Notes: a model not told the origin generated them from the sequence alone. A DNA stretch of 64,000 nucleotides from Halobacteriovoraceae bacterium (GCA_963719505.1 CAVRCF010000002.1:1-64000); one strand, 5' to 3'. Positions 9,284 through 35,007 are shown, counted from the first letter of the stretch. Translations and numbers: made by a program.

Positions 9284-9285
9284 CA

Positions 9286-15767: not shown

Positions 15768-15991
15768 GTTATCTCCGGGTTAGTTATCTAGTAATACTAA
15801 AATATCTCGATTTCTAAAAATTATATATAAAATTGAACATATTACAGACTAAGCTTTATGAATTATAAAGCTATTTTTATTAAAAAATAGCTTATGTTGA
15901 ATGATTTTTGAGGACTTAGGTGGGGCAAAAACCTTATTAAATCAGTCTATTGGATTGACTAGGTCTCTTTATATCTAAAGTTATTTATAGC

Positions 15992-16018
15992 TAAAGTAAT
16001 TCTTCTTTTTAACGATAA
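15992..16018 (+). promoter_or_regulatory. Sigma28 (FliA)-like promoter
   Basis: TAAA-N15-AACGATAA versus consensus TAAA-N15-GCCGATAA. Confidence 0.65.
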
Positions 16019-16054
16019 GTTTAAAAACAGCTGCTAAATCAATGGAGGGATAGC

Positions 16055-17593
16055 TTGATTCGTTTAAATCTATACCTATTTTCTATCTTTATGGCCTTGG
16101 CGGCAATTTCTTCCTACGCAAACCCTATCGAAATCTCACAGGTTCAAGACTTTGAAAATGATCTTTCTCGATCTTTGACAAATTCGCTGATAAAACTTGG
16201 TGCTGAGATGGGAACTTTGACGAGGGTAAAATTCAGTGGGGTCGTTCTCAAAAAAGAAGAGTCAAATTTTTTGCCACTAGGACTTGGTAAAGTCTCACTT
16301 GGAGTATCGGAGAAATTTAAAATTCGCCGTATCGATATAAGAGTTTTTTCTAAAAAAGCTCTTTCCGAGGACATTCAGAGTAAAATTCGTAAATTTGTGA
16401 AGTCGGAAATTAATATTTCTGGAGCGCGCCTAAAAACAAGTTTTGAAGCGATCTCTCTAGCGGCTAAAGCTTTGCCTAGTGTTGTTGTGAAGACGCCTAA
16501 AGCTAGTGAACTTGAGAGTTTTCTAACGAAGTACGCAGTAGCTGCAGCGCTGATTTTTTCAGCACTGGTTCTGGGAATATTTTTTGTCATAGGTCTTCTT
16601 TTAGTGAGAAATAAAAAGAAAGAGGCAAGTACGTCTTATAGTCCTGAATCTCAAAACCATGACAAAATAAGCTCTCTTCCCCCTCAAATACCTAGAGGAC
16701 ACTATATTGATATTTTATCCAGAGATAATTTTTGGAATAAATTTTCGGAAAAATCCTTGTCTTTGGCGTTTAATGATTTGAGTGCAGATGATAAAAATAG
16801 CTCGGCACTCAATACCCTTATTGGTCAGTACTTGCCGGCAAATAAATACGAAGTGATACAGAATAAATTAAGGAGTATTAGTTCCAATGGGTTTGATTCT
16901 GAAGAAGAAGAGAAAGTTGCGGACCTTGCTAGATACTTAGTGCAAAAAGCTCATGAATACAATCGATTATCATTAAGCGCTCTCAGCTGGAGTATAGGTT
17001 ATTTGGGAGAAGAGGTGGTGCTTGAGATGCTTGAGCAATCAAAGTTTGATACGACATTTCTTATTTTGAGTTACTACCATGCTCCGCCGATGGTTAAGGA
17101 GAGGTTGCGAGAGATTTTACCGGAAGATATTCGTCACCAGGTTGTGAATTTTGATTTTTCTGATCTACACGGAGAGGTCGTAAAAACTCTTGAGGCAAGT
17201 ATGGTTAGATTTTTAGATAAAAAACTTGATGCTTCAGTGGATGTTAATTTTGAAGAGGCGTGTTTTGATTTGACCCGACCACAGAGCTTTGCAGAGGATG
17301 AGAGAAGTTATGTTGAGTTCGGAAATAAGTTTGATTCAGTTTTAGGTTATGTCGACTCTATAGAAAATCTTGGGATGAGTGCTAAGGATCTTTCTTTAGT
17401 TTTTTACGGTTACAGTGAAGATGTCCTTGAAAGAGTGCGAGGACAAGTCGGAAAACTGGAGCTTGAATGGTTTGATTCTTTTGTTGAAGAGCAAAGGAAG
17501 CTGAAGAGTCATTATAACGATAATAAATTGAGTGAGCTTCGAGAGCGAGTCCGTTTGAAGGCGGGAAGCTTCTCGCTTGGTAAAGTGGCATAA
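16055..17593 (+). CDS. Exported single-pass membrane protein with cytoplasmic FliG-M/FliG-C-like domains (copy 1)
   Basis: SD GGAGG + TTG; signal peptide; periplasmic domain; TM AVAAALIFSALVLGIFFVIGLLLV; EEVVLEMLEQSKFDTTFLILSY..ILPEDIRHQVV (FliG-M-like); SAKDLSLVFYGYSEDVLERVRGQV (FliG-C-like). Confidence 0.65.
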   Translation: MIRLNLYLFSIFMALAAISSYANPIEISQVQDFENDLSRSLTNSLIKLGAEMGTLTRVKFSGVVLKKEESNFLPLGLGKVSLGVSEKFKIRRIDIRVFSKKALSEDIQSKIRKFVKSEINISGARLKTSFEAISLAAKALPSVVVKTPKASELESFLTKYAVAAALIFSALVLGIFFVIGLLLVRNKKKEASTSYSPESQNHDKISSLPPQIPRGHYIDILSRDNFWNKFSEKSLSLAFNDLSADDKNSSALNTLIGQYLPANKYEVIQNKLRSISSNGFDSEEEEKVADLARYLVQKAHEYNRLSLSALSWSIGYLGEEVVLEMLEQSKFDTTFLILSYYHAPPMVKERLREILPEDIRHQVVNFDFSDLHGEVVKTLEASMVRFLDKKLDASVDVNFEEACFDLTRPQSFAEDERSYVEFGNKFDSVLGYVDSIENLGMSAKDLSLVFYGYSEDVLERVRGQVGKLELEWFDSFVEEQRKLKSHYNDNKLSELRERVRLKAGSFSLGKVA

Positions 17594-17625
17594 AAGCTTG
17601 GCGATATTTGAGAATCGTTTGATTA

Positions 17626-17648
17626 ATCTACTATAAGACATAGTAGAT
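17626..17648. promoter_or_regulatory. Perfect 9-bp inverted repeat between the FliG-like and adhesin genes (mRNA stem or operator); also at 31307-31329
   Basis: ATCTACTAT-AAGAC-ATAGTAGAT with no T tract. Confidence 0.4.
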
Positions 17649-17690
17649 GAGACAAGGTGTTAAAATATTTATGAGACAGAGGGGGAGAAA

Positions 17691-20600
17691 TTGAGTTCAT
17701 TTATATCTTTGATTTTAGTTTTCTTTTTAGGAATGTCTTGTATGAATAGCGAGGATGCGAAAGAGGTTTTCGGATCTAAAGAAGCGGTGGGAGACGGTGG
17801 AGAATCGAGCTCTCTTGGATTTTTGATCACGAGTATCTATCCTTCAAACGGAGGTTTGGGTGGAGGATATGTGGTTTATATAAACGGTTCAAAGTTTACG
17901 AGCGATACAACTTTTGCGTTGGGCGGAACACCTTGTCTGTCGACGCAGATCCTTTCTTCAACTTCAGCGACTTGCCTTGCGCCACCTAGTGGGGCTTCAG
18001 GTTTGGTAAGTGTTTCGGCGAGTAAGGTCGGGGATAGTTACTCCCAGGCAGGAGGTTTTAGATATGTGGGAGCGACAGTAATAACGAGTGTAAGTCCGGC
18101 GATAACACCTGGAACAATACCAACGAGGATAGTTTTAACGGGGACAAATTTTATAAGTGGAAGTTTGGTAAATATAAGTCATCCCAATCTTCCGAATTCG
18201 CCGTGTACATCAGTCAATGTGGTAAATTCCACGACACTGGAATGTTTTACACCAGTGCTTACACCTAACCAGACAGATACGATGAGCACATCAGGAGTGA
18301 TTCCAAGTATTGAAGTCGTGACGCCAGATGGAGGAACGTCTTCACTTTTGAACGCTTTAACTTTGACGCCAGCGCCTATTATTACGGGAATCAGTTTTGG
18401 AGGTTCGGGAGTGACAGCGCTTCCGGTGGATGGGGTTTTGAATAATGGGGTTTCAAACTTTACTTTAACCCTGACGGGGAAATATTTTGTCGCGGGCGTG
18501 AGTGTAAGGCTTGCTTCTTTAAATGTACCAAATTGTAGTTCTTTTAATTCTAATCAGATCAGGTGTACCACATTGCCTGCAATGAGTAGCGCTGGAGGAT
18601 TCAATTTTGTTATCACAAATCTTGATGGGCAAAGCTCTTCTTTTAATACAAATTTTGTTAATAAACCAATTTCAACGGGATTCTCGCCTACAAAAACAGT
18701 TTTTACCGGTGGAGATGTGACTATATCGGGATCGGGGCTAAGTGTTGTGTCCCCACCGACCATAAGCATTTTTAAAGACTCAGACAATAGTTATGTAGCT
18801 CCTTGTACTATTGTGAGCTCCTTGCCTGTTATTTGTCGGGCACCAGACTTGGGCGAAGCTATGGATGTATTCTTTAGAATCGTGAATGAATATGGTTACA
18901 GAGCTGATACAGGAGTTTATGATTTTAGTGGTAGTACAGCCCTTAAGTTAAGTGGTGATACTAACCTTGAAAGAGTTGCCATAGGTTCTACTTTTAATAA
19001 ATCATTTATTTTTGCTAATCCCTCTGGAACGGTTGATGCTGAAAATCTCGCCTTCGATTTTTCAGGTTTCTCTACACCAGCTTTTAGCTTTGTCTCTAAT
19101 GATTGTACATCGACTCTGAGTGCTGGAAACTTTTGTACTTTAACTTTGAGTTTTAGTCCTACGGCGCTTGATTTTTATGAGTCAGGAAATTTTACGGTCT
19201 CCTACGATAACGGAATAAGTAACGTTAGTACTACTTATTCACTTAAAGGTAGAGGGGTAAAATTAGAGCTTGGACCGCCAACTCTAAACTTTTCTGTGAT
19301 TCCTTTTGGAATGAATCACGCTGGGCGTGCACCAGGTTTTCTTCGAGCTATTGTCATTAACAATGACTCTAATGCCTCAGTTCAAATAGATTCAACAAAT
19401 TTATCTAACACTACTGACTTTAACTATTACGGTGGGAGTTATCCCGGCGTTTTTGCAACACCGTTTAGCCATCAGTGTCCAGCTTCAAATATTATTCCAG
19501 CGAACACTTATTGCGTTGTCGTGATTGAGTTTAAGCCTCAATCTACAGGAGCAAAAACAGCGAACTTTTCTTTGAATTATAACTCAGGGCACTCAACTAG
19601 GAATGTGGTACTTTCCGGTAGTGGTGGTGATCCATCAATTACAACTTGTAATCCTGCAGCGCTGCCTTACGGTGGGGGATCAGGTATAGATGCAGACCCT
19701 TGGCAAATTTGTAGTGAGGCCCAATTTTTAGCTGCGATATCAGAAACAAATGATCATGCGAATACCTCCGCTGGAGATGACGATTTTATTTTGATGGACG
19801 ATATTACTTTTAGTGCTGGAGTTAGTAATGATATAACGCTCTTTAATTCCGCTTTTAGCTTCGATGGAAATGGTTATAAACTAATTGATTACGCGTTGAT
19901 AGATCCAGGCCAGACAAATGTTTCTGTAATTGGTGGACCGAATCGTGGTGGAAGTAGTATTCGTAGAGTACAAGCTTTAAATATGCAACTGAGCGGACTT
20001 TCGGCTGCTCCACTTGGTACCAGTGGGTCTTATGATAGTTTTTTGCAGGGGCAAGTTCTGGCATCCGGTAGTGCAAGTGGAGCTGCAGTAAATTCGGCTG
20101 GATATCTGGGTTTAATGAATCTGCAATTTATTGGTGATATAACTTCGACTAGTTCTTTTGCCGTAGGAGCATTAGACTATAATCAGTCTGTGACAATGAA
20201 TGAAGGATTAATAGTTGCAAATATGACTGGCCAAACCGGAGTCAGTGGCGCTGTTAGAGAGGGACGTTCTGCTGTTGCAGATTATTATGTGTATGCAGAA
20301 TTAAATAGTCCTTCTGGCTCAGCTAATGGAATTGGTGGAGTAGGTACAATTAATTCCCATTTTTATGGAAAGATAGATGCGGCTGGTGAGCTTTCAGGTA
20401 TAAGTAGAGCTCAGGGCTTTTCTAATTGCTCTGCCCGAGGGGTATTTAGTAGTGTTAACGGTAGAGTCGGAGGACTTTCTAGTTTAATAATACCTGGTCA
20501 TTATATTCATAACTCTTACTCTACTGCAAAATTAAAATCAGCAAGTGTAGAAATTGGAGGACTAGTTGGACGTTTCGATGGTCTTGAACTTAAGAACTCC

Positions 20601-20996
20601 TTTTTTGCAGGCCAGATCGATGCAAGTTCTGGGGGAGGGGGTGTTGCAGGTATTAGTTATCAAAATTCTATCGTAAGTAAGGTTTATGTAGCGCCTGTTC
20701 ATTCTGAAAGCGTTTTTATTAAAAATATCCATGCAACCTCCACGCCTATTTCAAGGGGAACAAACCCTTTAACCTTTAATGACGGAGTTTTTTACTTGAG
20801 AGATAGCTTGTCTTCTCCGTATGTAGAAGCTGGTGTTGAAGAATTCTCACAAACACAAATGATAAATCAAACGAATTTTGATACTATTTACGGTTCTTGG
20901 GACTTCAATCCAGCCGGAGGTCGCGATTGGAAGTTTTCCACATCAGGGTATCCTTACCCCATTTTAGACTGGATGGAAGATGATTGGATGCCTTAG
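17691..20996 (+). CDS. Large surface lipoprotein/adhesin: IPT/TIG repeats, Ig-like (ASH/choice-of-anchor-D-like) domains, GLUG-type beta-solenoid (variant 1)
   Basis: Lipobox-like LGMSC; ITSIYPSNG..GG..V.INGSKF..PC..SSTSATC..P repeats; CTSTLSAGNFCTLTLSFSPT; GSGIDADPWQICSEAQF; IGGLVG; WDF..W..YPILDW ending. Confidence 0.8.
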   Translation: MSSFISLILVFFLGMSCMNSEDAKEVFGSKEAVGDGGESSSLGFLITSIYPSNGGLGGGYVVYINGSKFTSDTTFALGGTPCLSTQILSSTSATCLAPPSGASGLVSVSASKVGDSYSQAGGFRYVGATVITSVSPAITPGTIPTRIVLTGTNFISGSLVNISHPNLPNSPCTSVNVVNSTTLECFTPVLTPNQTDTMSTSGVIPSIEVVTPDGGTSSLLNALTLTPAPIITGISFGGSGVTALPVDGVLNNGVSNFTLTLTGKYFVAGVSVRLASLNVPNCSSFNSNQIRCTTLPAMSSAGGFNFVITNLDGQSSSFNTNFVNKPISTGFSPTKTVFTGGDVTISGSGLSVVSPPTISIFKDSDNSYVAPCTIVSSLPVICRAPDLGEAMDVFFRIVNEYGYRADTGVYDFSGSTALKLSGDTNLERVAIGSTFNKSFIFANPSGTVDAENLAFDFSGFSTPAFSFVSNDCTSTLSAGNFCTLTLSFSPTALDFYESGNFTVSYDNGISNVSTTYSLKGRGVKLELGPPTLNFSVIPFGMNHAGRAPGFLRAIVINNDSNASVQIDSTNLSNTTDFNYYGGSYPGVFATPFSHQCPASNIIPANTYCVVVIEFKPQSTGAKTANFSLNYNSGHSTRNVVLSGSGGDPSITTCNPAALPYGGGSGIDADPWQICSEAQFLAAISETNDHANTSAGDDDFILMDDITFSAGVSNDITLFNSAFSFDGNGYKLIDYALIDPGQTNVSVIGGPNRGGSSIRRVQALNMQLSGLSAAPLGTSGSYDSFLQGQVLASGSASGAAVNSAGYLGLMNLQFIGDITSTSSFAVGALDYNQSVTMNEGLIVANMTGQTGVSGAVREGRSAVADYYVYAELNSPSGSANGIGGVGTINSHFYGKIDAAGELSGISRAQGFSNCSARGVFSSVNGRVGGLSSLIIPGHYIHNSYSTAKLKSASVEIGGLVGRFDGLELKNSFFAGQIDASSGGGGVAGISYQNSIVSKVYVAPVHSESVFIKNIHATSTPISRGTNPLTFNDGVFYLRDSLSSPYVEAGVEEFSQTQMINQTNFDTIYGSWDFNPAGGRDWKFSTSGYPYPILDWMEDDWMP

Positions 20997-21301
20997 GTTT
21001 TAATACTTATTACCAAACTGTAAAAAATATTCGTTCATCCTTTTTGCCCCAAATAATGAGAGTTGGTAATTTGGTAGATTGAATTTTATAAACAAAGCGC
21101 TCAGAAGAGGCTTGTTTAAATTTTTATTTAATCGCTCTCCTGAGAATTCGACACAATTTAGAAAATTAAAATATATGAGAGATGTTGCAAGCTTCTTAGT
21201 TTTCGGGGAAAACGCGCTGTGTAGTATTTAAATTATCATTTTCTTTTCTTTTTCTAATATTGCCAGTATCTAGATTATAATGTAGCGTCGGCCAATATTG
21301 T

Positions 21302-21730
21302 TTGTGGAGCTCTTCAATGTTTTTACGTGTATTTATCTTTTTCTTTTCAGTATTTATTTCATTTCACTCCAACGCAGTCGAGTTATACTCAGTTAATTTA
21401 CATAGAGGACTTTATCATGTTTACCATCAAAAAGTTGAGTCTCTACTAGGAAAGCAGTGCTCAGACTTTATAAATACCAATATAGAGATCTCACAATCAA
21501 CTATTAATACTAACTTCGACTCTGTAACCTTAGAGATTTTTTTTGAGGGAGACGATGAGTATTGGGTTTCTAAGCAGGTTTTCGAGGATTCAAATAGTTT
21601 TAGTTTTATACAAAATGGAGCTATCGAACATATTGTTTTTAAGGCCGTTCTGCAGCCAAGTGGGATTTATCATCTTTACTACTATCGAAACGCATGCATC
21701 TACAATTTATCAGTGGAAAAGGTTAAATAG
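21302..21730 (+). CDS. Secreted hypothetical protein (start may be ATG 21317)
   Basis: Hydrophobic signal peptide ending SNA. Confidence 0.65.
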   Translation: MWSSSMFLRVFIFFFSVFISFHSNAVELYSVNLHRGLYHVYHQKVESLLGKQCSDFINTNIEISQSTINTNFDSVTLEIFFEGDDEYWVSKQVFEDSNSFSFIQNGAIEHIVFKAVLQPSGIYHLYYYRNACIYNLSVEKVK

Positions 21731-21807
21731 GAAAAGATTTACCAAGTATCCCGGAAATTCCAACATTACGCAGTCCAAATCTTCAGATTAGTTAAAAAAA
21801 GTATGAA

Positions 21808-23448
21808 TTAGGGAAATGAAAGCCAAGGCTTGTATTGCTTATACTCAGGTGTCTGAGGCTTTGCTTTAGGGTCTATCCACAACATACTTTCATTATTCTT
21901 ACTTTTATTCTTTATACCTACATCTTTATTGGTTTTATTTTCAGGATGACTCGATACTTTTTTAATGGGTCTATACGTTTTAATATTTAGTGGATTCTGA
22001 CAGTCTGAATAAGGGTCCTCTAGGGATCCTGTACAGAGTACATTTCTCGTATAACCGGAGCTAAATTTGACCTTCTTAACTATGCTCATCTGTGAATTAT
22101 CGTTAGACATTTTTGCATATTTTTCGATATAGGAATAGTTTTTAAGAAAAATCACTTTTTCATACTCACCAGTTCCACCATCTACTGTAGTAAAATTTAA
22201 CTTTCTAATTTTGTTAAGATCACTTGAACTTGGCATTAGACCCATGTAACTAAAGATCTTAATATCAATAAGGTCTCCGCCGATATTTTTATTGAATTGG
22301 TCTCTGCTAACTCCTTCTGAGTCAAAGCGGTCCATACTAATACTTGGAAAGTATCCTAGAAGTGTTTTTCCAAAACTTGTGATCGCTCCGTCTACTTGTA
22401 GAGGAGGTTTCTTAAAGTTTTTAAATATGTTCTGTAAGTCATATGGGGATAACTTTCCATTAATTAAAGCATATTTTATAGCTGGCATTAAAGTTAAAAT
22501 ATCCTGAAAACTTGATACGGAATTGTGAAGATTTTTGACTTTTATGCTTAATTCATTCTTAAAACGATTGTAGTCATTACCATAACTAACTCCATTATTG
22601 TCGAATTGTAAAAGTGTACACATTATATCTCTTGTTCTTTTTATTTTATTACACTTTATGTTGATATCGTTACCAACAATAGCTACTTTATCATTTTTGC
22701 TGGAGGCTGGTAATGAGTTTCTAAAGTCAATCATACAAGAAACAACTTTTTCAGAATTGTTGATTGCATCAAAGTCTGAAAATGCATTAGTCAAACTTTG
22801 TTTTCTAAAAAAGTTTTTATATCCATTTACGATTGCTGAGCCCGAAGCTCCAACTCCGTTTGCTCCGATATTAGTTGATGAAATTAGATTGTTTTTATCG
22901 TCGCACACTAGTGAATCAGGGTGACTAAGGAGAATTGAAGCACCTGGACTCATTCCCGATTTTGGAGCTGAGGCGCCAAGGTTTCCATCCATAGAGCATA
23001 CACCGGTTCTGCACGCAGAGTAGTGGTTCATTTTGGCACTAAAGACATTTTTTTTACAACCTTTGTCGCAAGATGCTCGAATTAAATCCAAACTATTTAA
23101 GACATTAGATGACCCATCGTGATCTCCTTCGGTTCTCCAGTACGTTTGACCTTCATTGTCGACAGAACCGTGACTTGAGAGCACGAGCATGTCACAAACC
23201 TTTCCACTTCTTTCTGCATTTTCACATATTGTCTTTACAATATTATCAGATGACTGCCTGTCACTTACAAAAGACTTCTCGTCCACGGAGGAGTAAAGCT
23301 CAACCACATCATAAAGATCCTTTCTACTTTTAAAATAATTAATTTCGTCATTGGAGTTAATAGTGATTCCACAGACAACGGGTTTTTTGGCAATGGCCAG
23401 ACTACTCAGAATTATGAGCCCGGTAATTATAAAAAAATTCAACTTCAT
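21808..23448 (-). CDS. Secreted Cys-rich protein with possible caspase/CHAT-like (clan CD) His-Cys dyad
   Basis: SD GAGGA; signal peptide; CDMLVLSSHGS and NHYSACRTG. Confidence 0.5.
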   Translation of the reverse strand: MKLNFFIITGLIILSSLAIAKKPVVCGITINSNDEINYFKSRKDLYDVVELYSSVDEKSFVSDRQSSDNIVKTICENAERSGKVCDMLVLSSHGSVDNEGQTYWRTEGDHDGSSNVLNSLDLIRASCDKGCKKNVFSAKMNHYSACRTGVCSMDGNLGASAPKSGMSPGASILLSHPDSLVCDDKNNLISSTNIGANGVGASGSAIVNGYKNFFRKQSLTNAFSDFDAINNSEKVVSCMIDFRNSLPASSKNDKVAIVGNDINIKCNKIKRTRDIMCTLLQFDNNGVSYGNDYNRFKNELSIKVKNLHNSVSSFQDILTLMPAIKYALINGKLSPYDLQNIFKNFKKPPLQVDGAITSFGKTLLGYFPSISMDRFDSEGVSRDQFNKNIGGDLIDIKIFSYMGLMPSSSDLNKIRKLNFTTVDGGTGEYEKVIFLKNYSYIEKYAKMSNDNSQMSIVKKVKFSSGYTRNVLCTGSLEDPYSDCQNPLNIKTYRPIKKVSSHPENKTNKDVGIKNKSKNNESMLWIDPKAKPQTPEYKQYKPWLSFP

Positions 23449-23632
23449 ATAATTCCTCGTACGCTTTATTTGATCCAGTTCTATATTAACTCATCTCAAA
23501 AAATCGATCAATATGACAGTTTCAGAGGTAAAAAATGTCTATTTTCTATACCTCTGTTTATATGATGTGCAGTCGCTTTTAATTGAGCGCTACTAAAAAC
23601 GCGGTGTTGAGTGACTATAAAAATGACCAGAT

Positions 23633-23647
23633 TGGTACGATTCTTGC
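23633..23647 (+). promoter_or_regulatory. Sigma54 (RpoN)-like -24/-12 promoter
   Basis: TGGTAC-GATTC-TTGC, 35 nt before the start of 23683. Confidence 0.55.
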
Positions 23648-23682
23648 TGAATACTTAATAGTAATAATTTTAGGAGTAACTT

Positions 23683-26083: not shown

Positions 26084-26276
26084 GATGTGGTCCTTTGTTT
26101 AGTATTACTTTATTTCCTTATAGCTTCAATTATTTGGAAAATGAATTTTTTTTGACGTATTAAGTAAAAACAACACATTAAATAGAGTTTGTTTACCACT
26201 CCTGAGTTTTACCTTTTTTATAGCTCTTTAGCGATTGTATTCTAAATATTACTCGAATAAATTCCGATACCGTATT

Positions 26277-28313
26277 GTGAAAAATTGTAAGACTAGTTTA
26301 TTTTTACTCTTTAGTTTAGTGCTTGTTTTGCCAAGTCTATCTATTGCTGGTCCTGAATATGAGAAAATTATCAAAGATTTTCCAGATGAAATTCAAAACT
26401 CAAGAGCACTTGGTAACGCTGAATTTGAAATGGAGAGAAATTGTACTCAATTCTTAACTAAATCAAATGTTGTATTGCAACCTGATACTAAATCTAATGG
26501 TAATTCAAACTGCCTTGGTGGTCGGGAGCTTTTGAAAAATGAGGAAGTAGACGAATTAACAAGTAATTCTTTATTTGTTACAAAATATCTCCAAAATCAC
26601 TCAGATAACGTCTCTGTCTCACATCCAGTTAAAAAAGTTGCTGACACGAAATATTTACGTTGGTCCAAGTTATGGGATTCAAAACAAGAAGACTTTAAAA
26701 AGTACAACCCCAATGAGTCCACTGATGAATCCGAAAACCTTTTAGAGTCTTTAAACAGTACATCTACTGAGTTAATTGATTTTGTAATAAAAAAAACGAC
26801 TAAAGCTTTAAATAAACACAAGGCAATTCTTAGTTATTACGAGATGCACTCTGGTTACGTACTGAAGACTGTCAACGAACACCTTTATAAAGTCTCTAAG
26901 AATAATCCTTATTGTGAGCCGCAAATAAGGTTGAAAGCCATTAAGAACTCAGCAATTCGATCGAAAGGTTTAGAGCCATTTTTCACAAGTACAGATCGAA
27001 TGGTAGTGGAGGCGTTTAAAAATCCATGGTTTGTAAGGGTGCTTATGGGAAGTGCGGTTGGAGGTGTCGGCTACTCACTTGACGAAATACTCCGAGGGAA
27101 TGTTTTAAAGCCTTTTGATCCAGAACATATGCTTAGTAAATTATGTACATTTTGGCGTGGTTGGGAGAATAATGAAGGAAAAGCTCGACGAGGTCATAGA
27201 TCTTCTCATTTTATTAAAGCTAAAAAGAATCAAATTCAAGATATTGAAACAACTCTTGCAAATCTGAAAAATAAAAAAATGGAGCTTAAATCAAATAGAT
27301 TGGCCAAGGATCTAGGTACCATTGATGAATTAATGGCTCCTTTTATAATAGAGAATCCAGCCGTAATTAAATCGTTTCTTGCGCAAAAATTTGCAGACAA
27401 AGCTAGGGGAGTGCCTGGGGCACTGGGGATGCACTCTGGTAATCTTTGTTTTTTACTCAATATAGCTAATAATCATAAAACAGAGGATGAAGACTTTAAG
27501 ACCAACGTTAGCTTAGTCATGAGTGGCGTTGGGTTGGTAGGATCTATTTTGGCTCCAGAAATTGGTGTCGTTCTCTTTGCGGGGCAAGGAGTTTATGAGG
27601 TGGGAACTGAGCTTAATGAAATTGCAAAAATAAAAGCTAATAAACTTGATGATACAAGCTCTAATGCTATTAGCAATGATCTTAAAATCAAAATTCTTTC
27701 AGGGGAATTATTTGTGAAAGAGAACAAAGTCAATATTGGTATGCTTACTGCCGCCGCAGGCTTTGTGTTTTCAGCAGTAGATATTCCAGCATCAAAAATC
27801 AAGAGTGCTTTTAAAATAAGTGATAAAGGTTTTAATAGTAAACAACTAAAGAATTTAATAAAGAAGGAGCATGGAAGTTATTTCACGAACGTTGATAACA
27901 TTGTAAATGGCCTCCCTCAGGATGCGGCTCCAGATCTGAGAGATTTACTGGGAATTTGTTTTACACCGAATATTTCTAAAGCCACTTCTCTCAAATATAT
28001 CCACGAGGAGTTATGTGGCGAGAAAAATCTATCAAAGCTAAAGAAATTCATATCTTCTTGTAAAGTACCTAAGACGGCTTTTAATTGTTTAAAATCTAGG
28101 TACTTCAAAGTAGACGATTATGATGCAGATCTTGAGAAGTATGTAGAAAACCCAAACATAAGAGCACTATTTTTAAATACTAAAAGAGGATTGAAAATTG
28201 ATGAGGTGAAAAAATTAAATGATGAATATAACCGACTGATTAAGGTTGGAGTCTCAGAATCAAAAGCCAAAACTCTTTTAAGAAAAAAAATAAATAGTTG
28301 CAGGTTGCGATAA
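26277..28313 (+). CDS. Large secreted protein with C-terminal Gly/Ala-rich hydrophobic helices (possible membrane-inserting effector)
   Basis: Probable GTG start 26277 (track start 26235); signal peptide; VSLVMSGVGLVGSILAPEIGVVLFAG and IGMLTAAAGFVFSAV segments. Confidence 0.7.
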   Translation: MKNCKTSLFLLFSLVLVLPSLSIAGPEYEKIIKDFPDEIQNSRALGNAEFEMERNCTQFLTKSNVVLQPDTKSNGNSNCLGGRELLKNEEVDELTSNSLFVTKYLQNHSDNVSVSHPVKKVADTKYLRWSKLWDSKQEDFKKYNPNESTDESENLLESLNSTSTELIDFVIKKTTKALNKHKAILSYYEMHSGYVLKTVNEHLYKVSKNNPYCEPQIRLKAIKNSAIRSKGLEPFFTSTDRMVVEAFKNPWFVRVLMGSAVGGVGYSLDEILRGNVLKPFDPEHMLSKLCTFWRGWENNEGKARRGHRSSHFIKAKKNQIQDIETTLANLKNKKMELKSNRLAKDLGTIDELMAPFIIENPAVIKSFLAQKFADKARGVPGALGMHSGNLCFLLNIANNHKTEDEDFKTNVSLVMSGVGLVGSILAPEIGVVLFAGQGVYEVGTELNEIAKIKANKLDDTSSNAISNDLKIKILSGELFVKENKVNIGMLTAAAGFVFSAVDIPASKIKSAFKISDKGFNSKQLKNLIKKEHGSYFTNVDNIVNGLPQDAAPDLRDLLGICFTPNISKATSLKYIHEELCGEKNLSKLKKFISSCKVPKTAFNCLKSRYFKVDDYDADLEKYVENPNIRALFLNTKRGLKIDEVKKLNDEYNRLIKVGVSESKAKTLLRKKINSCRLR

Positions 28314-28345
28314 AATAATGATTAGTTTAAGAAGGTGGTTTTACA

Positions 28346-29602
28346 ATGTTCATTAATAGATTACTGATCCCAACAATTGTTATATTTTCTTCTTTAAAAG
28401 CGCATGCCGAGTTTAGTTGGTTTAGTGATTTCGATGATTGTGTGGACCCTGAACCTATTTTAAAGCTTCTCGATAATGATGTAGATAAAATCAAAGATAT
28501 TAATATAGAAGATATTCGATTACAGCTTCAAAAGTTTGATGAAGGTTCTCTTGAGGCGGCGAGCTTTACCGCTCGTCTTTTTAGGGGAGGAGATGATGAG
28601 ATGTCTATGGAATTTATTCTATCCAAGTGTGCCAAAGCTCAGAATCAAGTAAACTGCCTAGATGATTTTATTAATTCACGAGTTGAAATGGATAGTAACT
28701 TATTAAACCACTCTGATTATTCAAAAGTTTTTAAGAAGAAAAATAATGCAATCTATAGTGATTATCGACTTCTTGGGATTGTAGGAGGTAAGTCGAATTT
28801 AGATAAAGGGGCACACCAGCACTTTACTCATTCGATAAAAAGCCGATTTTCGAATACAGAAGCAGAAGAGATCCTAAGCTATTATAAAGGTTGCTTAGGG
28901 ACCCCACCAGCAGCTTCAAATGCCATTAATTGTATCAAATTTACACTCGAAAAACACAAAGAAATTATTACAAATGATCAGTATACAGCCATCAGAGGCT
29001 ACACATTTGAATACGATGCAATGATGAATAATCAACTAAGACATGGTAAGTTCGATAATAGGAATAATGTGAACATAACAGATATGACGATTGAACGAAG
29101 AATAGAGGTTTTATCCAAGACTATTGATGATAATAAAATACCTGATGATCAAATTGTTTATCGATTTAGTGCCGTTCCGAATGAACGATTTAAAGAAATT
29201 AAAAATGCAACAAATACAGGGGATGATGTCCTAGTCGATAAAGCTTTCCAATCAACTGCTTATGAGTTGAATTATTCAAATTATAAAACTTTTGCTCGAG
29301 TAAAGGATGATAAAAATACTGATGTGTTAACTTTATATGTAATAAACTCAGACAATGGTATGAATGTTGCTCACATTTCAAAATTTTCAGGTGAAGCTGA
29401 AGTACTTCTGAACAAAGGCTTAAAGTTTCAAGTTCAAAAAACGAACTCTGCTTTAGATGTTTGTAATAGTGTGAATTTGTCTCTTAATCCAGGCATTAGT
29501 TCTGAGCTTCAAGTTGTAGCATTGCAAGATTCTGAGCTAGCAATGAAAAAACCACGAAAAATCAAATACTCATTCAGTTTGATTAGCTTCTTATGTAAAT
29601 AA
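28346..29602 (+). CDS. Secreted ADP-ribosyltransferase, VIP2/exoenzyme (R-S-E) type
   Basis: Signal peptide; AIRGYT..Y..MNNQLR, IVYRF (Arg), DKAFQST (STS-like), ISKFSGEAEVLL (ExE). Confidence 0.8.
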   Translation: MFINRLLIPTIVIFSSLKAHAEFSWFSDFDDCVDPEPILKLLDNDVDKIKDINIEDIRLQLQKFDEGSLEAASFTARLFRGGDDEMSMEFILSKCAKAQNQVNCLDDFINSRVEMDSNLLNHSDYSKVFKKKNNAIYSDYRLLGIVGGKSNLDKGAHQHFTHSIKSRFSNTEAEEILSYYKGCLGTPPAASNAINCIKFTLEKHKEIITNDQYTAIRGYTFEYDAMMNNQLRHGKFDNRNNVNITDMTIERRIEVLSKTIDDNKIPDDQIVYRFSAVPNERFKEIKNATNTGDDVLVDKAFQSTAYELNYSNYKTFARVKDDKNTDVLTLYVINSDNGMNVAHISKFSGEAEVLLNKGLKFQVQKTNSALDVCNSVNLSLNPGISSELQVVALQDSELAMKKPRKIKYSFSLISFLCK

Positions 29603-29672
29603 TATAAATTGACATGCTTTCGACCTACTATTTGCAAAGTTAAATATAAAAACACATGAAATTTTGTATAGC

Positions 29673-29699
29673 TAAAGTAATTCTCCTTTTTAACGATAA
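29673..29699 (+). promoter_or_regulatory. Sigma28-like promoter (duplicated copy)
   Basis: TAAA-N15-AACGATAA. Confidence 0.65.
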
Positions 29700-29735
29700 G
29701 TTTAAAAACAGCTGCTAAATCAATGGAGGGATAGC

Positions 29736-31274
29736 TTGATTCGTTTAAATTTATACCTATTTTCTATCTTTATGGCCTTGGCGGCAATTTCTTCCTACGC
29801 AAACCCTATCGAAATCTCACAGGTCCAAGACCTTGAAAATGATCTTTCTCGATCTTTGACAAATTCGCTGATAAAACTTGGTGCTGAGACGGGAACTTTG
29901 ACGAGGGTAAAATTCAGTGGGGTCGTTCTCAAAAAAGAAGAGTCAAATTTTTTGCCACTAGGACTTGGTAAAGTCTCACTTGGAGTATCGGAGAAATTTA
30001 AAATTCGCCGTATCGATATAAGAGTTTTTTCTAAAAAAGCTCTTTCCGAGGACATTCAGAGTAAAATTCGTAAATTTGTGAAGTCGGAAATTAATATTTC
30101 TGGAGCGCGCCTAAAAACAAGTTTTGAAGCGATCTCTCTAGCGGCTAAAGCTTTGCCTAGTGTTGTTGTGAAGACGCCTAAAGCTAGTGAACTTGAGAGT
30201 TTTCTAACGAAGTACGCAGTAGCTGCAGCGCTGATTTTTTCAGCACTGGTTCTGGGAATATTTTTTGTCATAGGTCTTCTTTTAATGAGAAATAAAAAGA
30301 AAGAGGCAAGTACGTCTTATAGTCCTGAATCTCAAAACCATGACAAAATAAGCTCTCTTCCCCCTCAAATACCTAGTGGACACTATATTGATATTTTATC
30401 CAGAGATAATTTTTGGAATAAATTTTCGGAAAAATCCTTGTCTTTGGCGTTTAATGATTTGAGTGCAGATGATAAAAATAGCTCGGCACTCAATACCCTT
30501 ATTGGTCAGTACTTGCCGGCAAATAAATACGAAGTGATACAGAATAAATTAAGGAGTATTAGTTCCAATGGGTTTGATTCTGAAGAAGAAGAGAAAGTTG
30601 CGGACCTTGCTAGATACTTAGTGCAAAAAGCTCATGAATACAATCGATTATCTTTAAGCGCTCTCAGCTGGAGTATAGGTTATTTGGGAGAAGAGGTAGT
30701 GCTTGAGATGCTTGAGCAATCAAAGTTTGATACGACATTTCTTATTTTGAGTTACTACCATGCCCCGCCGATGGTTAAGGAGAGGTTGCGAGAGATTTTA
30801 CCGGAAGATATTCGTCACCAGGTTGTGAATTTTGATTTTTCTGATCTACACGGAGAGGTCGTAAAAACTCTTGAGGCAAGTATGGTTAGATTTTTAGATA
30901 AAAAACTTGATGCTTCAGTGGATGTTAATTTTGAAGAGGCGTGTTTTGATTTGACCCGACCACAGAGCTTTGCAGAGGATGAGAGAAGTTATGTTGAGTT
31001 CGGAAATAAGTTTGATTCAGTTTTAGGTTATGTCGACTCTATAGAAAATCTTGGCATGAGTGCTAAGGACCTTTCTTTAGTTTTTTACGGTTACAGTGAA
31101 GATGTCCTTGAAAGAGTACGAGGACAAGTCGGAAAACTGGAGCTTGAATGGTTTGATTCTTTTGTTGAAGAGCAAAGAAAGTTGAAGAGTCACTATAACG
31201 ACAATAGATTGAGTGAGCTTCGTGAGAGAGTCCGTTTGAAGGCGGGAAGCTTCTCGCTTGGTAAAGTGGCATAA
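29736..31274 (+). CDS. Exported single-pass membrane protein with FliG-like cytoplasmic domains (copy 2)
   Basis: 512 aa; differs from copy 1 at 5 residues (F/L, M/T, V/M, R/S, K/R). Confidence 0.65.
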   Translation: MIRLNLYLFSIFMALAAISSYANPIEISQVQDLENDLSRSLTNSLIKLGAETGTLTRVKFSGVVLKKEESNFLPLGLGKVSLGVSEKFKIRRIDIRVFSKKALSEDIQSKIRKFVKSEINISGARLKTSFEAISLAAKALPSVVVKTPKASELESFLTKYAVAAALIFSALVLGIFFVIGLLLMRNKKKEASTSYSPESQNHDKISSLPPQIPSGHYIDILSRDNFWNKFSEKSLSLAFNDLSADDKNSSALNTLIGQYLPANKYEVIQNKLRSISSNGFDSEEEEKVADLARYLVQKAHEYNRLSLSALSWSIGYLGEEVVLEMLEQSKFDTTFLILSYYHAPPMVKERLREILPEDIRHQVVNFDFSDLHGEVVKTLEASMVRFLDKKLDASVDVNFEEACFDLTRPQSFAEDERSYVEFGNKFDSVLGYVDSIENLGMSAKDLSLVFYGYSEDVLERVRGQVGKLELEWFDSFVEEQRKLKSHYNDNRLSELRERVRLKAGSFSLGKVA

Positions 31275-31371
31275 AAACTTGGCTATATTTGAGAATCGTT
31301 TGATTAATCTACTATAAGACATAGTAGATGAGACAAGGTGTTAAAATATTTATGAGACAGAGGGGGAGAAA

Positions 31372-34300
31372 TTGAGTTCATTTATATCTTTGATTTTAGT
31401 TTTCTTTTTAGGAATGTCTTGTATGAATAGCGAGGATGCGAAAGAGGTTTTCGGATCTAAAGAAGCGGTGGGAGACGGTGGAGAATCGAGCTCTCTTGGA
31501 TTTTTGATCACGAGTATCTATCCTTCAAACGGAGGTTTGGGTGGAGGATATGTGGTTTATATAAACGGTTCAAAGTTTACGAGCGATACAACTTTTGCGT
31601 TGGGCGGAACACCTTGTCTGTCGACGCAGATCCTTTCTTCAACTTCCGCGACTTGCCTTGCGCCACCTAGTGGGTCTTCAGGTTTGGTAAGTGTTTCGGC
31701 GAGTAAGGTCGGGGATAGTTACTCCCAGGCAGGAGGTTTTAGATATGTGGGAGCGACAGTAATAACGAGTGTAAGTCCGGCGATAACACCTGGAACAATA
31801 CCAACGAGGATAGTTTTAACGGGGACAAATTTTATAAGTGGAAGTTTGGTAAATATAAGTCATCCCAATCTTCCGAATTCTCCTTGTACATCAGTCAATG
31901 TGGTAAATTCCACGACACTGGAATGTTTTACACCGGTGCTAACACCTAATCAGACAGATACGATGAGTACATCAGGAGTGATCCCAAGTATTGAAGTAAT
32001 CACGCCAGATGGAGGAACGTCTTCACTTTTGAACGCTTTAACTTTGACGCCAGCGCCTATTATTACGGGAATCAGTTTTGGAGGTTCGGGAGTGACAGCG
32101 CTTCCGGTGGATGGGGTTTTGAATAATGGGGTTTCAAACTTTACTTTAACCCTAGTCGGAAAACATTTAAAAGCAGGACTGTCGGTGAGGCTTGCAGGTA
32201 ATACTGCGGGATCTTGTACATTTTTTAATGCAACTCAAGTCCGGTGTACTTCTTTGCCATCAGTTACAACAGCGGGTGGATTTAATTTTAATATTACTAA
32301 CAATGACGGGCAGAGTTCAAGTTTTAATACGAGCTTTGTCGATAAGCCTGTTGTCTCAGATTTCTCTCCAGCGAGAACCGCTTTTACGGGGGGAGATGTA
32401 ACGATCAATGGTGTTGGGTTGAGTATTCTTAGTGCACCCTCAGTTGTCATTCATAGGCAGAGTGATTCTAGTCTACTTGCAAATTGTACAGTCTCGAGTT
32501 CATCACCACTAGTCTGTACTGCGCCTGATTTGGGTTCTGAAGTGGATGTTTTTTTTAGAATAACAACTGAGTATGGTTATCGTGCCGATAGTGGAATATA
32601 TTTTTTTAGTGGAAGTACAGAACTTGGAATAAATGGTGATTTCAATTTAGAAAGAGTTACACTCGGCTCAACATTAGAAAAGAGTTTTATTCTCACAAAT
32701 CCTTCTTTAGGTGTTGATATAACTAGTCTTAACTTGGACTTTAGCGCTTTAGGCGGTGCTTATTCATTTGTTTCTTCAACTTGTACCGCAAATCTTAATG
32801 CGGGGCAGGTATGCAATTTCGTTGTTAGATTTATGCCAACAGCTCTTGAGTACTATGAATCCGGCAATATTAACATTAGTTATTTTGACGGCTTAACTAA
32901 TGTAGCTTCTAGCTACAAGCTTAACGGTTGGGGAATTGAGCTAGAAGTTGGACCACCGGTTATAGATTTTAGCTCTGTCTCTGTTGGTCCGAACCTTCAG
33001 GGTATTGCCCCAAAATTTCTTAAAGGTGTAGTTATTAATAATCGTTCAAATGCTTCGGTTCAGGTAGATATTTCAAGACCATCTGATTTCTCAAATTCAA
33101 CAGATTTTCATTACATGGGTGGTAGTGGCTTTCCAGGGATTTGGCCTACAACACCCGCTGAGGCTTGTCCAGTTTCAGGAGAAATACCACCTAATACTTA
33201 CTGTGTAGCAGCTGTCGAATTTGAACCTCAAAGTTTAGGTGGAAGTACCTCAACATTTTCTCTTAGCTATAATTCAATATACACAACTAAGCCTATTGAA
33301 CTAGTTGGTAATGGAAATGGACTCACGACCACGGTCTGTGATCCTTCCGGAGTACCTTACGGTGCAGGAGATGGAACAAGCATTAATCCTTGGCAACTGT
33401 GTTCAGAAGCCCACATGGTGAGAATGCGAACAAGAATTAATGATACTGATACTGTGGAGGCTAACGATTTTTTTCTGCAAATGAGTGATATTACTTTTAC
33501 ATCTTCTTTTCCTGAGTCAATCGAGATGACTGGTGGGTTATTTGATGGAGGAGGTTACAAACTGATTGATTTTGAAATTAGTAATACAGGTTTAGGAGCG
33601 GCTTCTTTATTGTCAGATAATATTGACGGATACACTAGTCCTTATAGTTGTAATACAACGAGAATGCAGTTGTTAAATCTAAAAATTACAGCCGGTATTG
33701 TAGCTGGGCTTTCATCTTGTAGGAGTTCTAGTGTTGGTAATTCAACACTTCAAGGAGCACTAGTTGGTTCTAGTCGTGTCGGTGGTGTTATTCATCAGGT
33801 TGTCGGCGCAGCTCCGAGCAATACTCAGTATATTGGTACAATAAAAAGCTCCTCGTCCGGTGGTGGTATATATTATGGTTTCAACAATTCTACTGATACT
33901 ACTCAAAATAACTTATTTATTGGATCGGCTGATGTTGTTGGCGGCTTTGGAGGAATAACGATTGGAGGAAGAATTAGTACTATAAATAGCTATGTCTACG
34001 CTGATATCGTTGCAGCTTTAGCGTCAGGGATTAGTGCCAATCAATATGGTGTCCAGGATTCACATTTCTTTGGATCGATAAATGTATCTGGAGATTTTGA
34101 AGGTGTTGGTGCTGCTAGGTACGGCAGCATAGGCGTGGTTCGTTCAAGTTCCAGAGGGACAGTGTCTGGTGGTGGAGGTTTATACTCGGGAGGGGTCAGT
34201 GGCAACTTATCTAGTGCAGTAGGTGTCGAGCAGTCATATTCAACTTTGAAAATAGATTGTCCTTTGGGTTGTGGAGGTTTATCTGGAAGGCACTTAAGTA

Positions 34301-34725
34301 CCTCAGTCGGTCTTCAAGATAGCTTTTTTGCCGGGAAGATGAGCTCGGTTATGAGTGGTATTTCTAGCGACAATTCAAGCCTTACACTCGCTCCAGTTGA
34401 ACGAATATATGTGGCAAGTTCAGATATGTTAAGTATTTTAAGTGACTCTGATGATGATGACGCAAATATGATTACTAGAGATCCAGAGGGTTTTGACTTT
34501 AAGGATGTCTTTTACTTGAGAGATTCATCTGCGGGTAATTATGTTTCAACTGGTGTCACTGAGCTCAACAATGCAGAGATGATGAATATTACTAGGTTTA
34601 GAGATATAGGTGGATGGGATTTTAAAGATACTGCCGAGGATGGAGACCCTGCAGTTTGGAAAATGGGAACAGCTGGCTATAAGTACCCCATTCTCGACTG
34701 GATGGAGGACGACTGGATGCCTTAA
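31372..34725 (+). CDS. Large IPT/TIG-Ig-GLUG surface lipoprotein/adhesin (variant 2)
   Basis: First ~260 aa nearly identical to 17691-20996, remainder homologous but diverged; same terminal YPILDWMEDDWMP. Confidence 0.8.
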   Translation: MSSFISLILVFFLGMSCMNSEDAKEVFGSKEAVGDGGESSSLGFLITSIYPSNGGLGGGYVVYINGSKFTSDTTFALGGTPCLSTQILSSTSATCLAPPSGSSGLVSVSASKVGDSYSQAGGFRYVGATVITSVSPAITPGTIPTRIVLTGTNFISGSLVNISHPNLPNSPCTSVNVVNSTTLECFTPVLTPNQTDTMSTSGVIPSIEVITPDGGTSSLLNALTLTPAPIITGISFGGSGVTALPVDGVLNNGVSNFTLTLVGKHLKAGLSVRLAGNTAGSCTFFNATQVRCTSLPSVTTAGGFNFNITNNDGQSSSFNTSFVDKPVVSDFSPARTAFTGGDVTINGVGLSILSAPSVVIHRQSDSSLLANCTVSSSSPLVCTAPDLGSEVDVFFRITTEYGYRADSGIYFFSGSTELGINGDFNLERVTLGSTLEKSFILTNPSLGVDITSLNLDFSALGGAYSFVSSTCTANLNAGQVCNFVVRFMPTALEYYESGNINISYFDGLTNVASSYKLNGWGIELEVGPPVIDFSSVSVGPNLQGIAPKFLKGVVINNRSNASVQVDISRPSDFSNSTDFHYMGGSGFPGIWPTTPAEACPVSGEIPPNTYCVAAVEFEPQSLGGSTSTFSLSYNSIYTTKPIELVGNGNGLTTTVCDPSGVPYGAGDGTSINPWQLCSEAHMVRMRTRINDTDTVEANDFFLQMSDITFTSSFPESIEMTGGLFDGGGYKLIDFEISNTGLGAASLLSDNIDGYTSPYSCNTTRMQLLNLKITAGIVAGLSSCRSSSVGNSTLQGALVGSSRVGGVIHQVVGAAPSNTQYIGTIKSSSSGGGIYYGFNNSTDTTQNNLFIGSADVVGGFGGITIGGRISTINSYVYADIVAALASGISANQYGVQDSHFFGSINVSGDFEGVGAARYGSIGVVRSSSRGTVSGGGGLYSGGVSGNLSSAVGVEQSYSTLKIDCPLGCGGLSGRHLSTSVGLQDSFFAGKMSSVMSGISSDNSSLTLAPVERIYVASSDMLSILSDSDDDDANMITRDPEGFDFKDVFYLRDSSAGNYVSTGVTELNNAEMMNITRFRDIGGWDFKDTAEDGDPAVWKMGTAGYKYPILDWMEDDWMP

Positions 34726-35007
34726 CTCTAGTTTATTCCAGTAATTTAAGCTACTTATTTACGTTCGCTTTGATTGATCAAGTTTGATAAAATTAAAAAA
34801 AATCAGAAATCTAAAGCTTTTTTCTTCACGCACTTAGTTGTCGCTAGCAAAACGTATAGAGACTAGACACTTTTTTATTTAGTGTTACTAAATTACAATC
34901 CTATATCTTCGGTCCCTTAAATACTGTATATTTGTCTTATAACTTAATCAACGGTTTAAGTCGTCTATGGTAAGACTTTGTAATCAGACTCAAGCCAAAG
35001 GAAAATT

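Follow-up and report, generated by a model that had tools for sequence, protein, structure and literature searches.

How can two genes for large surface proteins of the same bacterium share a nearly identical 5' part, synonymous positions included, and differ profoundly beyond it? The question is raised by a 64,000-nt stretch of DNA from a Halobacteriovoraceae bacterium (GCA_963719505.1, CAVRCF010000002.1:1-64000; "the window" denotes this whole stretch), which carries, twice and in the same orientation, a pair of genes designated here A and B. Gene A encodes a predicted membrane-anchored protein with likeness to the flagellar rotor protein FliG, and gene B a large predicted lipoprotein ending in a GLUG-type module (coordinates in Table 1). 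An initial annotation of the window had described a 2,487-bp near-identical cassette joined to two divergent adhesin tips, and had attributed it to recent gene conversion or cassette capture. The comparisons presented below indicate that recent gene conversion, or an equivalent recombinational replacement, acting on an old duplication of the A-B pair explains this block.

In BLASTN searches, the two regions align as a single ungapped segment (15978-18724 and 29659-32405; 95.3% identity over 2,747 nt). Within it lies a high-identity core, a direct repeat of 2,487 nt, ungapped, 98.63% identical and with an offset of 13,681 nt between copies. The core is present exactly twice, with no third copy, in the whole assembly (5 contigs, 3.69 Mb, rated 83.5% complete); a further copy might still lie in the sequence missing from an assembly of this completeness. 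As originally reported, the repeat begins 6 nt ahead of the -35 element of a sigma-28-like promoter motif, at both copies. Mismatches per 50-nt bin number 0 to 6 inside the block, 21 to 34 upstream of position 15978 (the random level) and 13 to 30 downstream of position 18472. The 34 mismatches within the block are distributed between the promoter and 5' untranslated part (1 difference in 69 nt), gene A (19), the A-B spacer (2 in 97 nt) and gene B (12). The A1 and A2 proteins differ at five of 512 residues (F33L, M52T, V184M, R214S and K491R; 99.0% identity), while the 12 mismatches in codons 1-261 of gene B fall in 11 codons and change two residues (A102S and V210I). All figures of the initial annotation (five residues in 512, two up to about codon 260) were reproduced. 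The mismatches are clustered, with 10 of them inside 130 nt, a density reached by 9 of 10,000 permutations; the longest mismatch-free stretch measures 394 nt. Such clustering fits patchy heteroduplex repair or more than one conversion event. The GC content stays at 33-41% throughout the composition profile, with no island-like anomaly.

Past positions 18472 and 32153 (codon 261), B1 and B2 remain collinear, with identities of 47-68% in alignment columns 241-660 and of 24-39% in columns 661-1080. This agrees with the earlier description of two homologous adhesins that diverge strongly, most of all in the solenoid. Synonymous (dS) and non-synonymous (dN) substitutions per site were calculated from the codon alignment of B1 and B2 and from the gene A pair. 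Values of dS and dN are 0.043 and 0.0042 for gene A, and 0.055 and 0.0043 for codons 1-261 of gene B. From there on dS is saturated: columns 262-660 of the B alignment (proportion of synonymous differences, pS, 0.71) show a dN of 0.40, columns 661-1050 a dN of 0.86 and the last 75 columns a dN of 0.42. The divergence profile and dN/dS analysis that the initial annotation had recommended as a check thus reveal a sharp step in dS past codon 261, not a uniform divergence along the gene, and the dS of 0.043-0.055 in the block as against saturation beyond it supports the proposal of recent conversion or capture.

Since synonymous and non-coding sites have been homogenised along with the protein sequence, differential constraint cannot explain the block, and recombination can. 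A uniformly old duplication, in which very strong purifying selection alone had kept the block identical, would account for the inclusion in the block of the gene on which a shared partner, the stator, most probably imposes constraint. This possibility is refuted by the step in dS (0.04-0.055, together with near-identical non-coding parts, versus saturation past codon 261) and retains practically no probability. The position of the 3' limit is also informative. TIG-like domains start near residues 46, 131, 231 and 330 of the B proteins, and the 261/262 boundary lies about 31 residues into the third of them. Being inside this domain and not at a domain border, the boundary reads as a recombination end-point; it looks like the place where strand exchange stopped, not like a designed junction between domains or modules.

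Genes A and B are the sole paralogous genes between the two regions. The copies have unrelated sequences upstream, unrelated open reading frames (ORFs) after B1 and B2, and six ORFs between them that are likewise unrelated; homology between the copies stops at the B stop codon. The ancient duplicated unit is therefore about 5.0 kb long (15978-20996 and 29659-34725). We propose that this A-B unit was duplicated long ago, because synonymous divergence is saturated over the 3' 840 codons of gene B, and that the 5' 2,487 bp of one copy would recently have been copied over the other by homologous, non-reciprocal recombination. On the 5' side the conversion tract would extend to the edge of the duplicated unit; on the 3' side it would end in the third TIG-like domain of gene B, where an identity of about 60% at the nucleotide level would no longer support strand exchange. 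Both the direction and the mechanism of conversion are what we infer from this pattern. The dN/dS ratio since the last exchange is about 0.1 in both copies, denoting purifying selection, and both are therefore probably in use.

A different history could have led to the same arrangement: A2 might be new, a 2.5-kb copy of the promoter, A1 and the 5' part of B1 having recently been placed before a lone, old B paralogue through homologous recombination within B at the 3' side and an illegitimate join at the 5' side. No diverged remnant of an older A2 is seen, the 5' identity limit is abrupt with no homology upstream, and the homologues of A found elsewhere (see below) are single within their own module in 10 of 12 loci, all of which would suit such a capture. 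However, it calls for two recombination mechanisms in one event, and the exact, ungapped, in-frame join inside B needs homology anyway, whereas conversion of an old duplication as far as homology reaches yields the same pattern by one mechanism. We thus consider capture unlikely. More improbable still is an active variation system, in which the repeats would be kept identical as recombination substrates to switch, delete or amplify B variants along with the 13.7-kb interval between copies; surface proteins would thereby be switched at the level of the population. RecA acts well on direct repeats of this length (2.5 kb) and identity (98.6%), the clustered mismatches suggest more than one exchange, and the interval encodes secreted proteins, one of them ADP-ribosyltransferase-like; yet the ORF and family scans of the region detected no site-specific recombinase, invertible element or silent cassette array, and the block exists in just two copies. 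Finally, the second copy, or the linkage between blocks and tips, could have been made by the assembler, as short reads alone could mis-phase copies that share a mismatch-free stretch of 394 nt. The unique flanks on both sides of both copies and the 34 private differences, mostly synonymous, argue against this. In addition, neither reading frame is broken and the 3' parts belong to truly different genes, while a collapse or chimera would not yield two intact, diverged B genes. We regard an artefact as very improbable.

Some observations weigh against our preferred interpretation of old duplication and recent conversion. Searches of other genomes and of metagenomes brought up no orthologue of the A-B locus, so that the order of events lacks an outgroup. 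As a consequence, conversion is not separable from a recent duplication of part of the unit by which a solitary B paralogue had its 5' end replaced. Furthermore, the repeat and the linkage of the blocks to their 3' parts are as the assembly gives them. Positive selection on the tips was considered and dropped: dS is saturated, and dN/dS in the solenoid ranges from 0.3 to 0.75 in most bins, with a single bin at 1.35. Altogether, an old A-B duplication with recent conversion of its 5' part, involving a MotAB-linked FliG-like protein (A) and a GLUG-bearing surface lipoprotein (B), is the best explanation of the whole, and we hold it to be reasonably probable.

What kind of protein does the homogenised gene specify? 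The AlphaFold model of A comprises an N-terminal helix, an alpha/beta domain of about 130 aa, a long transmembrane helix (residues ~153-186), a disordered linker and a helical domain (~215-505). Submitted whole to Foldseek, the model retrieved at the top of the list (E 0.004-0.05) MS-ring chains of FliF, which matched its N-terminal part, and FliG, which matched its C-terminal part; VIA-align returned the RBM3 domain of FliF with a Z-score of 8.9 and FliG with Z-scores of 7.1-7.7. Residues 215-512 were also modelled separately, with 17 family sequences, none of them Pfam-positive (predicted local distance difference test, pLDDT, 82). Foldseek ranks 1 to 9 were then all FliG (E 0.035-0.85). In a VIA-align run independent of Foldseek and covering 48,161 chains, all eight chains with Z of at least 5 were FliG (Z 5.2-7.0), the next row having a Z of 4.0. 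Examples are 3soh_B (Z 7.0, root-mean-square deviation 2.4, 71 of 80 residues aligned) and 8umd_B (Z 6.1, 202 residues). The cytoplasmic domain model thus has the armadillo-like fold of the FliG middle and C-terminal domains, at moderate Z but with FliG well separated from all other families.

Profile comparison provided a second line of evidence. In hhalign, the 17-sequence A family matched a 7-sequence family of 584-636-aa proteins from the same phylum with a probability of 97.7% (E 2.5e-12, 480 collinear columns). All seven members of the latter pass the Pfam cut-off for FliG_C and six pass that for FliG_M. The hhalign alignments set the ...GK...W..SF... motif of the A family opposite the torque-helix region of FliG. 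Neighbours of A1 in a language-model Atlas (scores 0.88-0.93) belong to clusters of 480-720-aa proteins with FliG_C and FliG_M, some also with YscJ_FliF_C, from Bdellovibrionota, Myxococcota, Cloacimonadota, Pseudomonadota and Elusimicrobiota. As to the periplasmic domain, its comparison with FliF RBM3 (8z5v_A) gave a Z of 8.9 (root-mean-square deviation 3.1, 100 residues aligned), and PrgK, EscJ and SpoIIIAG were also listed; the modelled resemblance to ring-building motifs is no more than suggestive. A sequence search of the PDB with the A profile gave chance-level rows (E about 1).

There are points that tell against this assignment. Neither A1 nor A2 matches any Pfam or NCBIfam family. In genome-wide scans at E<=1, PF01706 finds three other places but not A, and PF01514 finds the canonical fliF alone. 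The Z-scores of the A domain are all below 8, a range that may be unspecific for helical proteins according to the tool's own warning. The hhalign comparison of the A family with the single FliG of the genome gave 2.4% and E 0.019, yet with a collinear alignment. In the periplasmic domain, the pLDDT of the model is mostly below 55, and the unrelated OsmC, KH and ribosomal folds appear at Z 7-7.8. On balance, fold searches, the hhalign link and the language-model neighbours support the FliG-like character that the initial annotation had ascribed to the gene: A would be a membrane-anchored FliG-like protein, similar to a FliF/FliG fusion, whose homology to Pfam-positive FliG-domain proteins is transitive. 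The possibility that A is the flagellar FliG was ruled out, as the canonical fliF (C3:23351) and fliG (C3:25610) lie together on another contig. Two proteins encoded elsewhere in this genome (G000), away from fliG, contain little beyond FliG_C (C1:1220115-1220435, 145 aa, 58 bits; C1:579442-579762, 142 aa, 43 bits).

Relatives of A proved difficult to find. Single-sequence searches yielded none in 40 related genomes; a word-indexed protein search with the single A sequence or a profile returned the window's own cluster only, and an exhaustive protein search uncovered four distant relatives. Metagenome scans, both with A and with the B1/B2 alignment, gave no relative, and searches with B produced weak domain-level matches only. 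When 401 genomes of the phylum were searched with a profile, A matches appeared in 20, among them the present one. Twelve loci with strong matches were retrieved and inspected for synteny.

At these loci, the A homologue is directly preceded by a MotB-like gene (ending at, or overlapping, the start of A) in 11 of 12 cases. A MotA-like gene is found upstream in 10; of the other two loci, one meets a contig end and one (L042) is devoid of motAB within 19 kb. An ORF of about 190-226 aa follows the A homologue in all 12, and a TPR protein is encoded ahead of motA wherever the locus sequence reaches far enough. This synteny with MotA/MotB paralogues strongly supports the motor link put forward for gene A. 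The window itself holds all five gene types of the module (fused rotor-like gene, motA, motB, TPR gene and the gene for a small secreted or outer-membrane protein) at 12781-17593, but in a different order: X-T-motA-motB, an opposite-strand ORF and A, as compared to T-motA-motB-A-X elsewhere. Lying beside the module, 850 bp past motB, copy 1 of the repeat therefore occupies the original site of the rotor gene or one close to it; copy 2 follows after 13.7 kb and has no stator of its own. The rotor gene of the window is detached, has its own sigma-28-like promoter, and is duplicated, each copy being followed by a gene for a TIG/GLUG lipoprotein that has no counterpart beside the module in the 12 related loci.

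The MotA-like protein has as best NCBIfam matches flagellar motor protein/MotP/PomA/MotA models, all below cut-offs, and its gene accounts for one of the 10 MotA_ExbB matches in the genome. The MotB-like protein matches the NCBIfam MotD/MotB family (E 7e-14 and weaker), likewise below cut-offs. Gene X specifies a protein with a signal-peptide-like N-terminus and a C-terminal ...GMEFRI sequence, without Pfam or NCBIfam match. Gene T lacks a Pfam match itself; two of the seven ORFs on which its hidden Markov model (HMM) was built carry TPR_19.

The co-duplication of A and B had been taken to suggest a dedicated pairing. Co-duplication in the present genome speaks for it; against it, a B homologue is found beside A in none of the 12 other loci, leaving adjacency and co-duplication in a single genome as the basis of the functional pairing. 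Prediction of a complex between residues 22-150 of A and 18-262 of B (score 0.03, mark 0.32) is evidence neither way. Just beyond the module, Big_1/Invasin-type proteins with immunoglobulin-like (Ig) repeats are encoded in three of the 12 loci (L034, L045 and L036; 2,315, 2,089 and 596 aa).

Other features were noted at related loci. L044 (G057:C13:130000-149000) carries at 1351-12205 two tandem MotAB-linked modules, one with a 578-aa A homologue, the other with a second motA/motB pair and, next to it, a protein of 799 aa above the FliG_M and FliG_C cut-offs (57 bits). In L037, a gene on the minus strand (6474-7487), two genes downstream of the module, encodes a protein combining a GerE helix-turn-helix, a response-regulator receiver and a PilZ domain, which hints at cyclic di-GMP or two-component control near the module. 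Loci L028-L032 and L046, from complete genomes of one genus (3.6-4.1 Mb), encode 584-588-aa membrane proteins with FliG_M and FliG_C. Conserved ORFs of 327-330 aa and about 140-195 aa, without family match, precede these genes, and in L046 MotA/MotB-like genes are situated 3-5 kb away, not adjacent.

Both B proteins begin with a lipobox-type signal, read by eye (...LILVFFLGMSC at residues 7-17, with the cysteine), and B is thus predicted to be a lipoprotein, presumably located at the surface. TIG (PF01833) matches in three stretches of each protein (B1, 67 bits, E 1.5e-18; B2, 75.7 bits, E 2.9e-21; cut-off 20.9). Ig domains of the choice-of-anchor-D/HYDIN type follow, then a C-terminal region of about 440 aa. 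The latter has no direct Pfam match, and none to PF07581 (GLUG) in B1 or B2 even at E<=10. The only sequence relatives of this region, distant ones, carry PF07581 together with Peptidase_M26_N (P0010, E 5e-9; P0011, E 2e-5). In BLASTP, residues 659-1099 of B1 align cap to cap with repeated modules of P0010, from P-x-GG-x-G...DPWQI to ...WDF...W...YP..DW, and of 30 Atlas feature matches of B, 21 belong to the Glug set, with a top score of 0.96. The description of the B C-terminal part as GLUG-like is upheld by remote homologues and language-model features alike.

The tips had also been said to reconverge at the protein level. Indeed, B1 and B2 share VFYLRDS and YPILDWMEDDWMP without a difference, and the last 41 nt of the two genes differ at five positions with no amino-acid change. 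However, as the caps are shared with the P0010 modules, the reconverging motifs represent a cap conserved in solenoid modules of this standard kind; the identity of the motifs and its synonymous changes stand, and reconvergence reduces to the conserved C-cap. By sequence, the B1 and B2 tips appear as the same fold with diverged surfaces, not as different, swapped domains. Tip swapping and prey recognition by B are purely putative.

The two A-B units start from similar expression signals. In both copies, TAAAG-N15-ACGATAA precedes the A start by 37 nt and fits TAAA-N15-GCCGATAA-type -35/-10 elements. TAAA-N16-18-CGATAA occurs eight times in the window, versus 0.89 expected, and 0 of 100 shuffled sequences reach this number. 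The sigma-28-like motif noticed initially is thus real and enriched. The sites are at 10349, 15992, 24786, 29673, 49237(-), 55591(-), 56973 and 62229(-). Six of the eight are just upstream of ORF starts, as read from the ORF map, suggesting that sigma-28-type promoters are widely used in this genome. The site at 10349 is upstream of the likely true start of uvrB, since in the listed ORF the NCBIfam match does not begin before residue 59. The UvrB of the window shares 67-77% identity with proteins recorded under Bacteriovoracaceae or Bacteriovorax, which places the organism in Bacteriovoracaceae. Of 140 attack-phase promoters of Bdellovibrio bacteriovorus, 92 have a FliA-like motif (PMC3627812); by analogy, attack-phase expression of the A-B units is a reasonable inference. 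No terminator-like site is listed in the 97-nt A-B spacers, and each A is probably co-transcribed with its own B. A scan of 15200-35150 for sigma-70 promoters and terminators showed no excess over shuffled sequences (48 vs 57.7 and 12 vs 11.7, respectively).

The interval between copies contains six ORFs (21302-29602), all with hydrophobic, signal-like N-termini and five without Pfam match. The remaining one (28346-29602, plus strand) encodes 418 aa with a signal-peptide-like N-terminus, and its residues 202-369 match ADPrib_exo_Tox (E 3.6e-15); its 3' end is 65 nt short of copy 2 of the repeat, and it may specify a secreted ADP-ribosyltransferase of the predator. Recombination between the 2.5-kb direct repeats would remove the six ORFs and the 3' part of B1.

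Table 1. Coordinates of the repeat, the A-B units and the motor module, counted from the first nucleotide of the window
Feature	Position	Strand	Basis or remark
Near-identical block, copy 1: promoter, A1, spacer and B1 codons 1-261	15986..18472	+	98.63%, ungapped
Near-identical block, copy 2	29667..32153	+	98.63% vs copy 1
Sigma-28 (FliA)-like motif, copy 1	15992..16018	+	TAAA-N17-CGATAA
Sigma-28-like motif, copy 2	29673..29699	+	One spacer base different
Gene A1, 512 aa	16055..17593	+	Signal/N-terminal helix; periplasmic alpha/beta domain, ~130 aa; transmembrane segment ~153-186; FliG-like helical cytoplasmic domain ~215-505 (predicted)
Gene A2, 512 aa	29736..31274	+	99.0% identical to A1
Gene B1, 1,101 aa	17691..20996	+	Lipoprotein-type signal (LGMSC); TIG-like and choice-of-anchor-D/HYDIN-type Ig domains; GLUG-type module
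Gene B2, 1,117 aa	31372..34725	+	Paralogue collinear with B1; overall identity 56-58%
B1 GLUG-type beta-solenoid module, residues 659-1101	19665..20996	+	N-cap PYGGGSG..DPWQI; C-cap ..WDF..W..YPILDW
B2 GLUG-type module, residues 662-1117	33355..34725	+	24-39% identical to B1 module except caps
Gene X, small secreted protein, possibly outer-membrane, 179 aa	12781..13320	+	HMM of A-following ORFs from 12 loci, E 7e-15
Gene T, TPR/PEGA-type homologue, 196 aa	13317..13907	+	HMM of 7 upstream ORFs from related loci, E 4e-16
MotA-like stator subunit, divergent flagellar-type paralogue, 240 aa	13904..14626	+	Pfam MotA_ExbB, E 4e-16
MotB-like stator subunit, OmpA-like peptidoglycan-binding domain, 198 aa	14610..15206	+	Pfam OmpA, E 9e-8; weak MotB_plug
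ORF interposed between motB and A1, 168 aa	15261..15767	-	No family match; not matched by the X and T HMMs

Several known systems resemble parts of this locus. With the flagellar motor core (FliF MS-ring, FliG and MotA5B2), A has in common the FliG middle/C-terminal fold of its cytoplasmic domain, its profile homology to FliG_M/FliG_C proteins, and the location of its homologues right after flagellar-type MotA/MotB paralogues; a likeness of its periplasmic domain to the ring-building motifs of FliF, PrgK and EscJ is weak. It differs in being one polypeptide with a single transmembrane helix and without direct Pfam match to FliG or FliF. The ORFs scanned in the region include no genes for FliM/FliN, the export apparatus, the rod or the hook, MotA and MotB being the only flagellar family matches there. 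Agl-Glt is the gliding motor system of Myxococcus and Bdellovibrio. AglRS is mentioned in PMC12505986, and GldLM and the type IX secretion system, with SprB, are an example of motor-driven surface adhesins in gliding Bacteroidota (PMC12239597). Like these systems, the present locus has a MotAB-family ion motor encoded together with envelope proteins and a large adhesin-like surface protein. However, their motors are GldLM or TolQR/ExbBD-like (AglRQS) units not known to have a FliG-like partner, while the window has a flagellar-type stator and a FliG-like partner, whose role in motility, if any, is putative.

On the side of gene B, partial gene conversion between adhesin or outer-membrane protein paralogues is known from babA/babB of Helicobacter pylori and hmw1ABC/hmw2ABC of Haemophilus influenzae. 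There, as here, a segment and accessory genes are near-identical by recombination and the binding part differs, but in the window the homogenised accessory gene encodes a motor component like FliG instead of a partner in secretion or glycosylation. Nothing in the analysis pointed to switching of B driven by host or prey. The nearest precedent for a prey-recognition tip, from the same phylum, is offered by the mosaic adhesive trimer (MAT) fibres of Bdellovibrio bacteriovorus, a surface-protein family proposed to serve varied binding (PMC10769870). B differs in being a predicted TIG/Ig and GLUG lipoprotein, in which family scans found no fibre or trimer features, and in that its two tips share one fold module and are not chimeric.

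These elements can be assembled into a working model. A would be the inner-membrane rotor gene product of a non-flagellar module made of a FliF/FliG fusion and MotA/MotB, and B a large surface lipoprotein with an Ig-like stalk and a single GLUG-type beta-solenoid head. One MotAB-type stator, encoded upstream of copy 1 with the TPR and small secreted proteins, would serve two near-identical rotor proteins, driving or engaging a ring or cluster of FliG-like A. As A1 and A2 would both have to fit this one stator, concerted evolution of A would be favoured. Each rotor gene would be co-transcribed with its own B, most likely in attack phase, and concerted evolution would keep the rotor and the cell-proximal B stalk uniform while the distal solenoid surfaces diverge. 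Physical contact of A with B or with MotA, and a role of B in prey binding, might go along with this. One could then envisage a surface adhesin as the motor output, with one stator, two interchangeable rotor-adhesin sets, an attack-phase promoter, and solenoids for different targets, possibly prey. We offer this last scheme as a rather speculative one.

Partial conversion between surface-protein paralogues is in itself familiar; the interest of the locus is that the homogenised gene is a FliG-like, membrane-anchored rotor gene. The MotAB-linked module of this gene is widespread and has no known function. What is new here is a rotor gene detached from its operon, duplicated, and twice paired with divergent Ig/beta-solenoid surface lipoproteins. 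The literature searched, including passages of a 2025 survey of MotAB relatives (PMC12505986), gave no description of a membrane-anchored FliG-like partner, which is not proof of absence. Prey attachment is central in the group to which this bacterium belongs, and sigma-28 promoters mark attack-phase genes in a studied relative (PMC3627812). The A-B pairing, together with the Ig-repeat giants found by the module in three of 12 loci, leads to the testable hypothesis that the motor output is a surface adhesin. If this is true, the locus would be the first genetic handle on what a flagellum-free FliF-FliG/MotAB motor moves.

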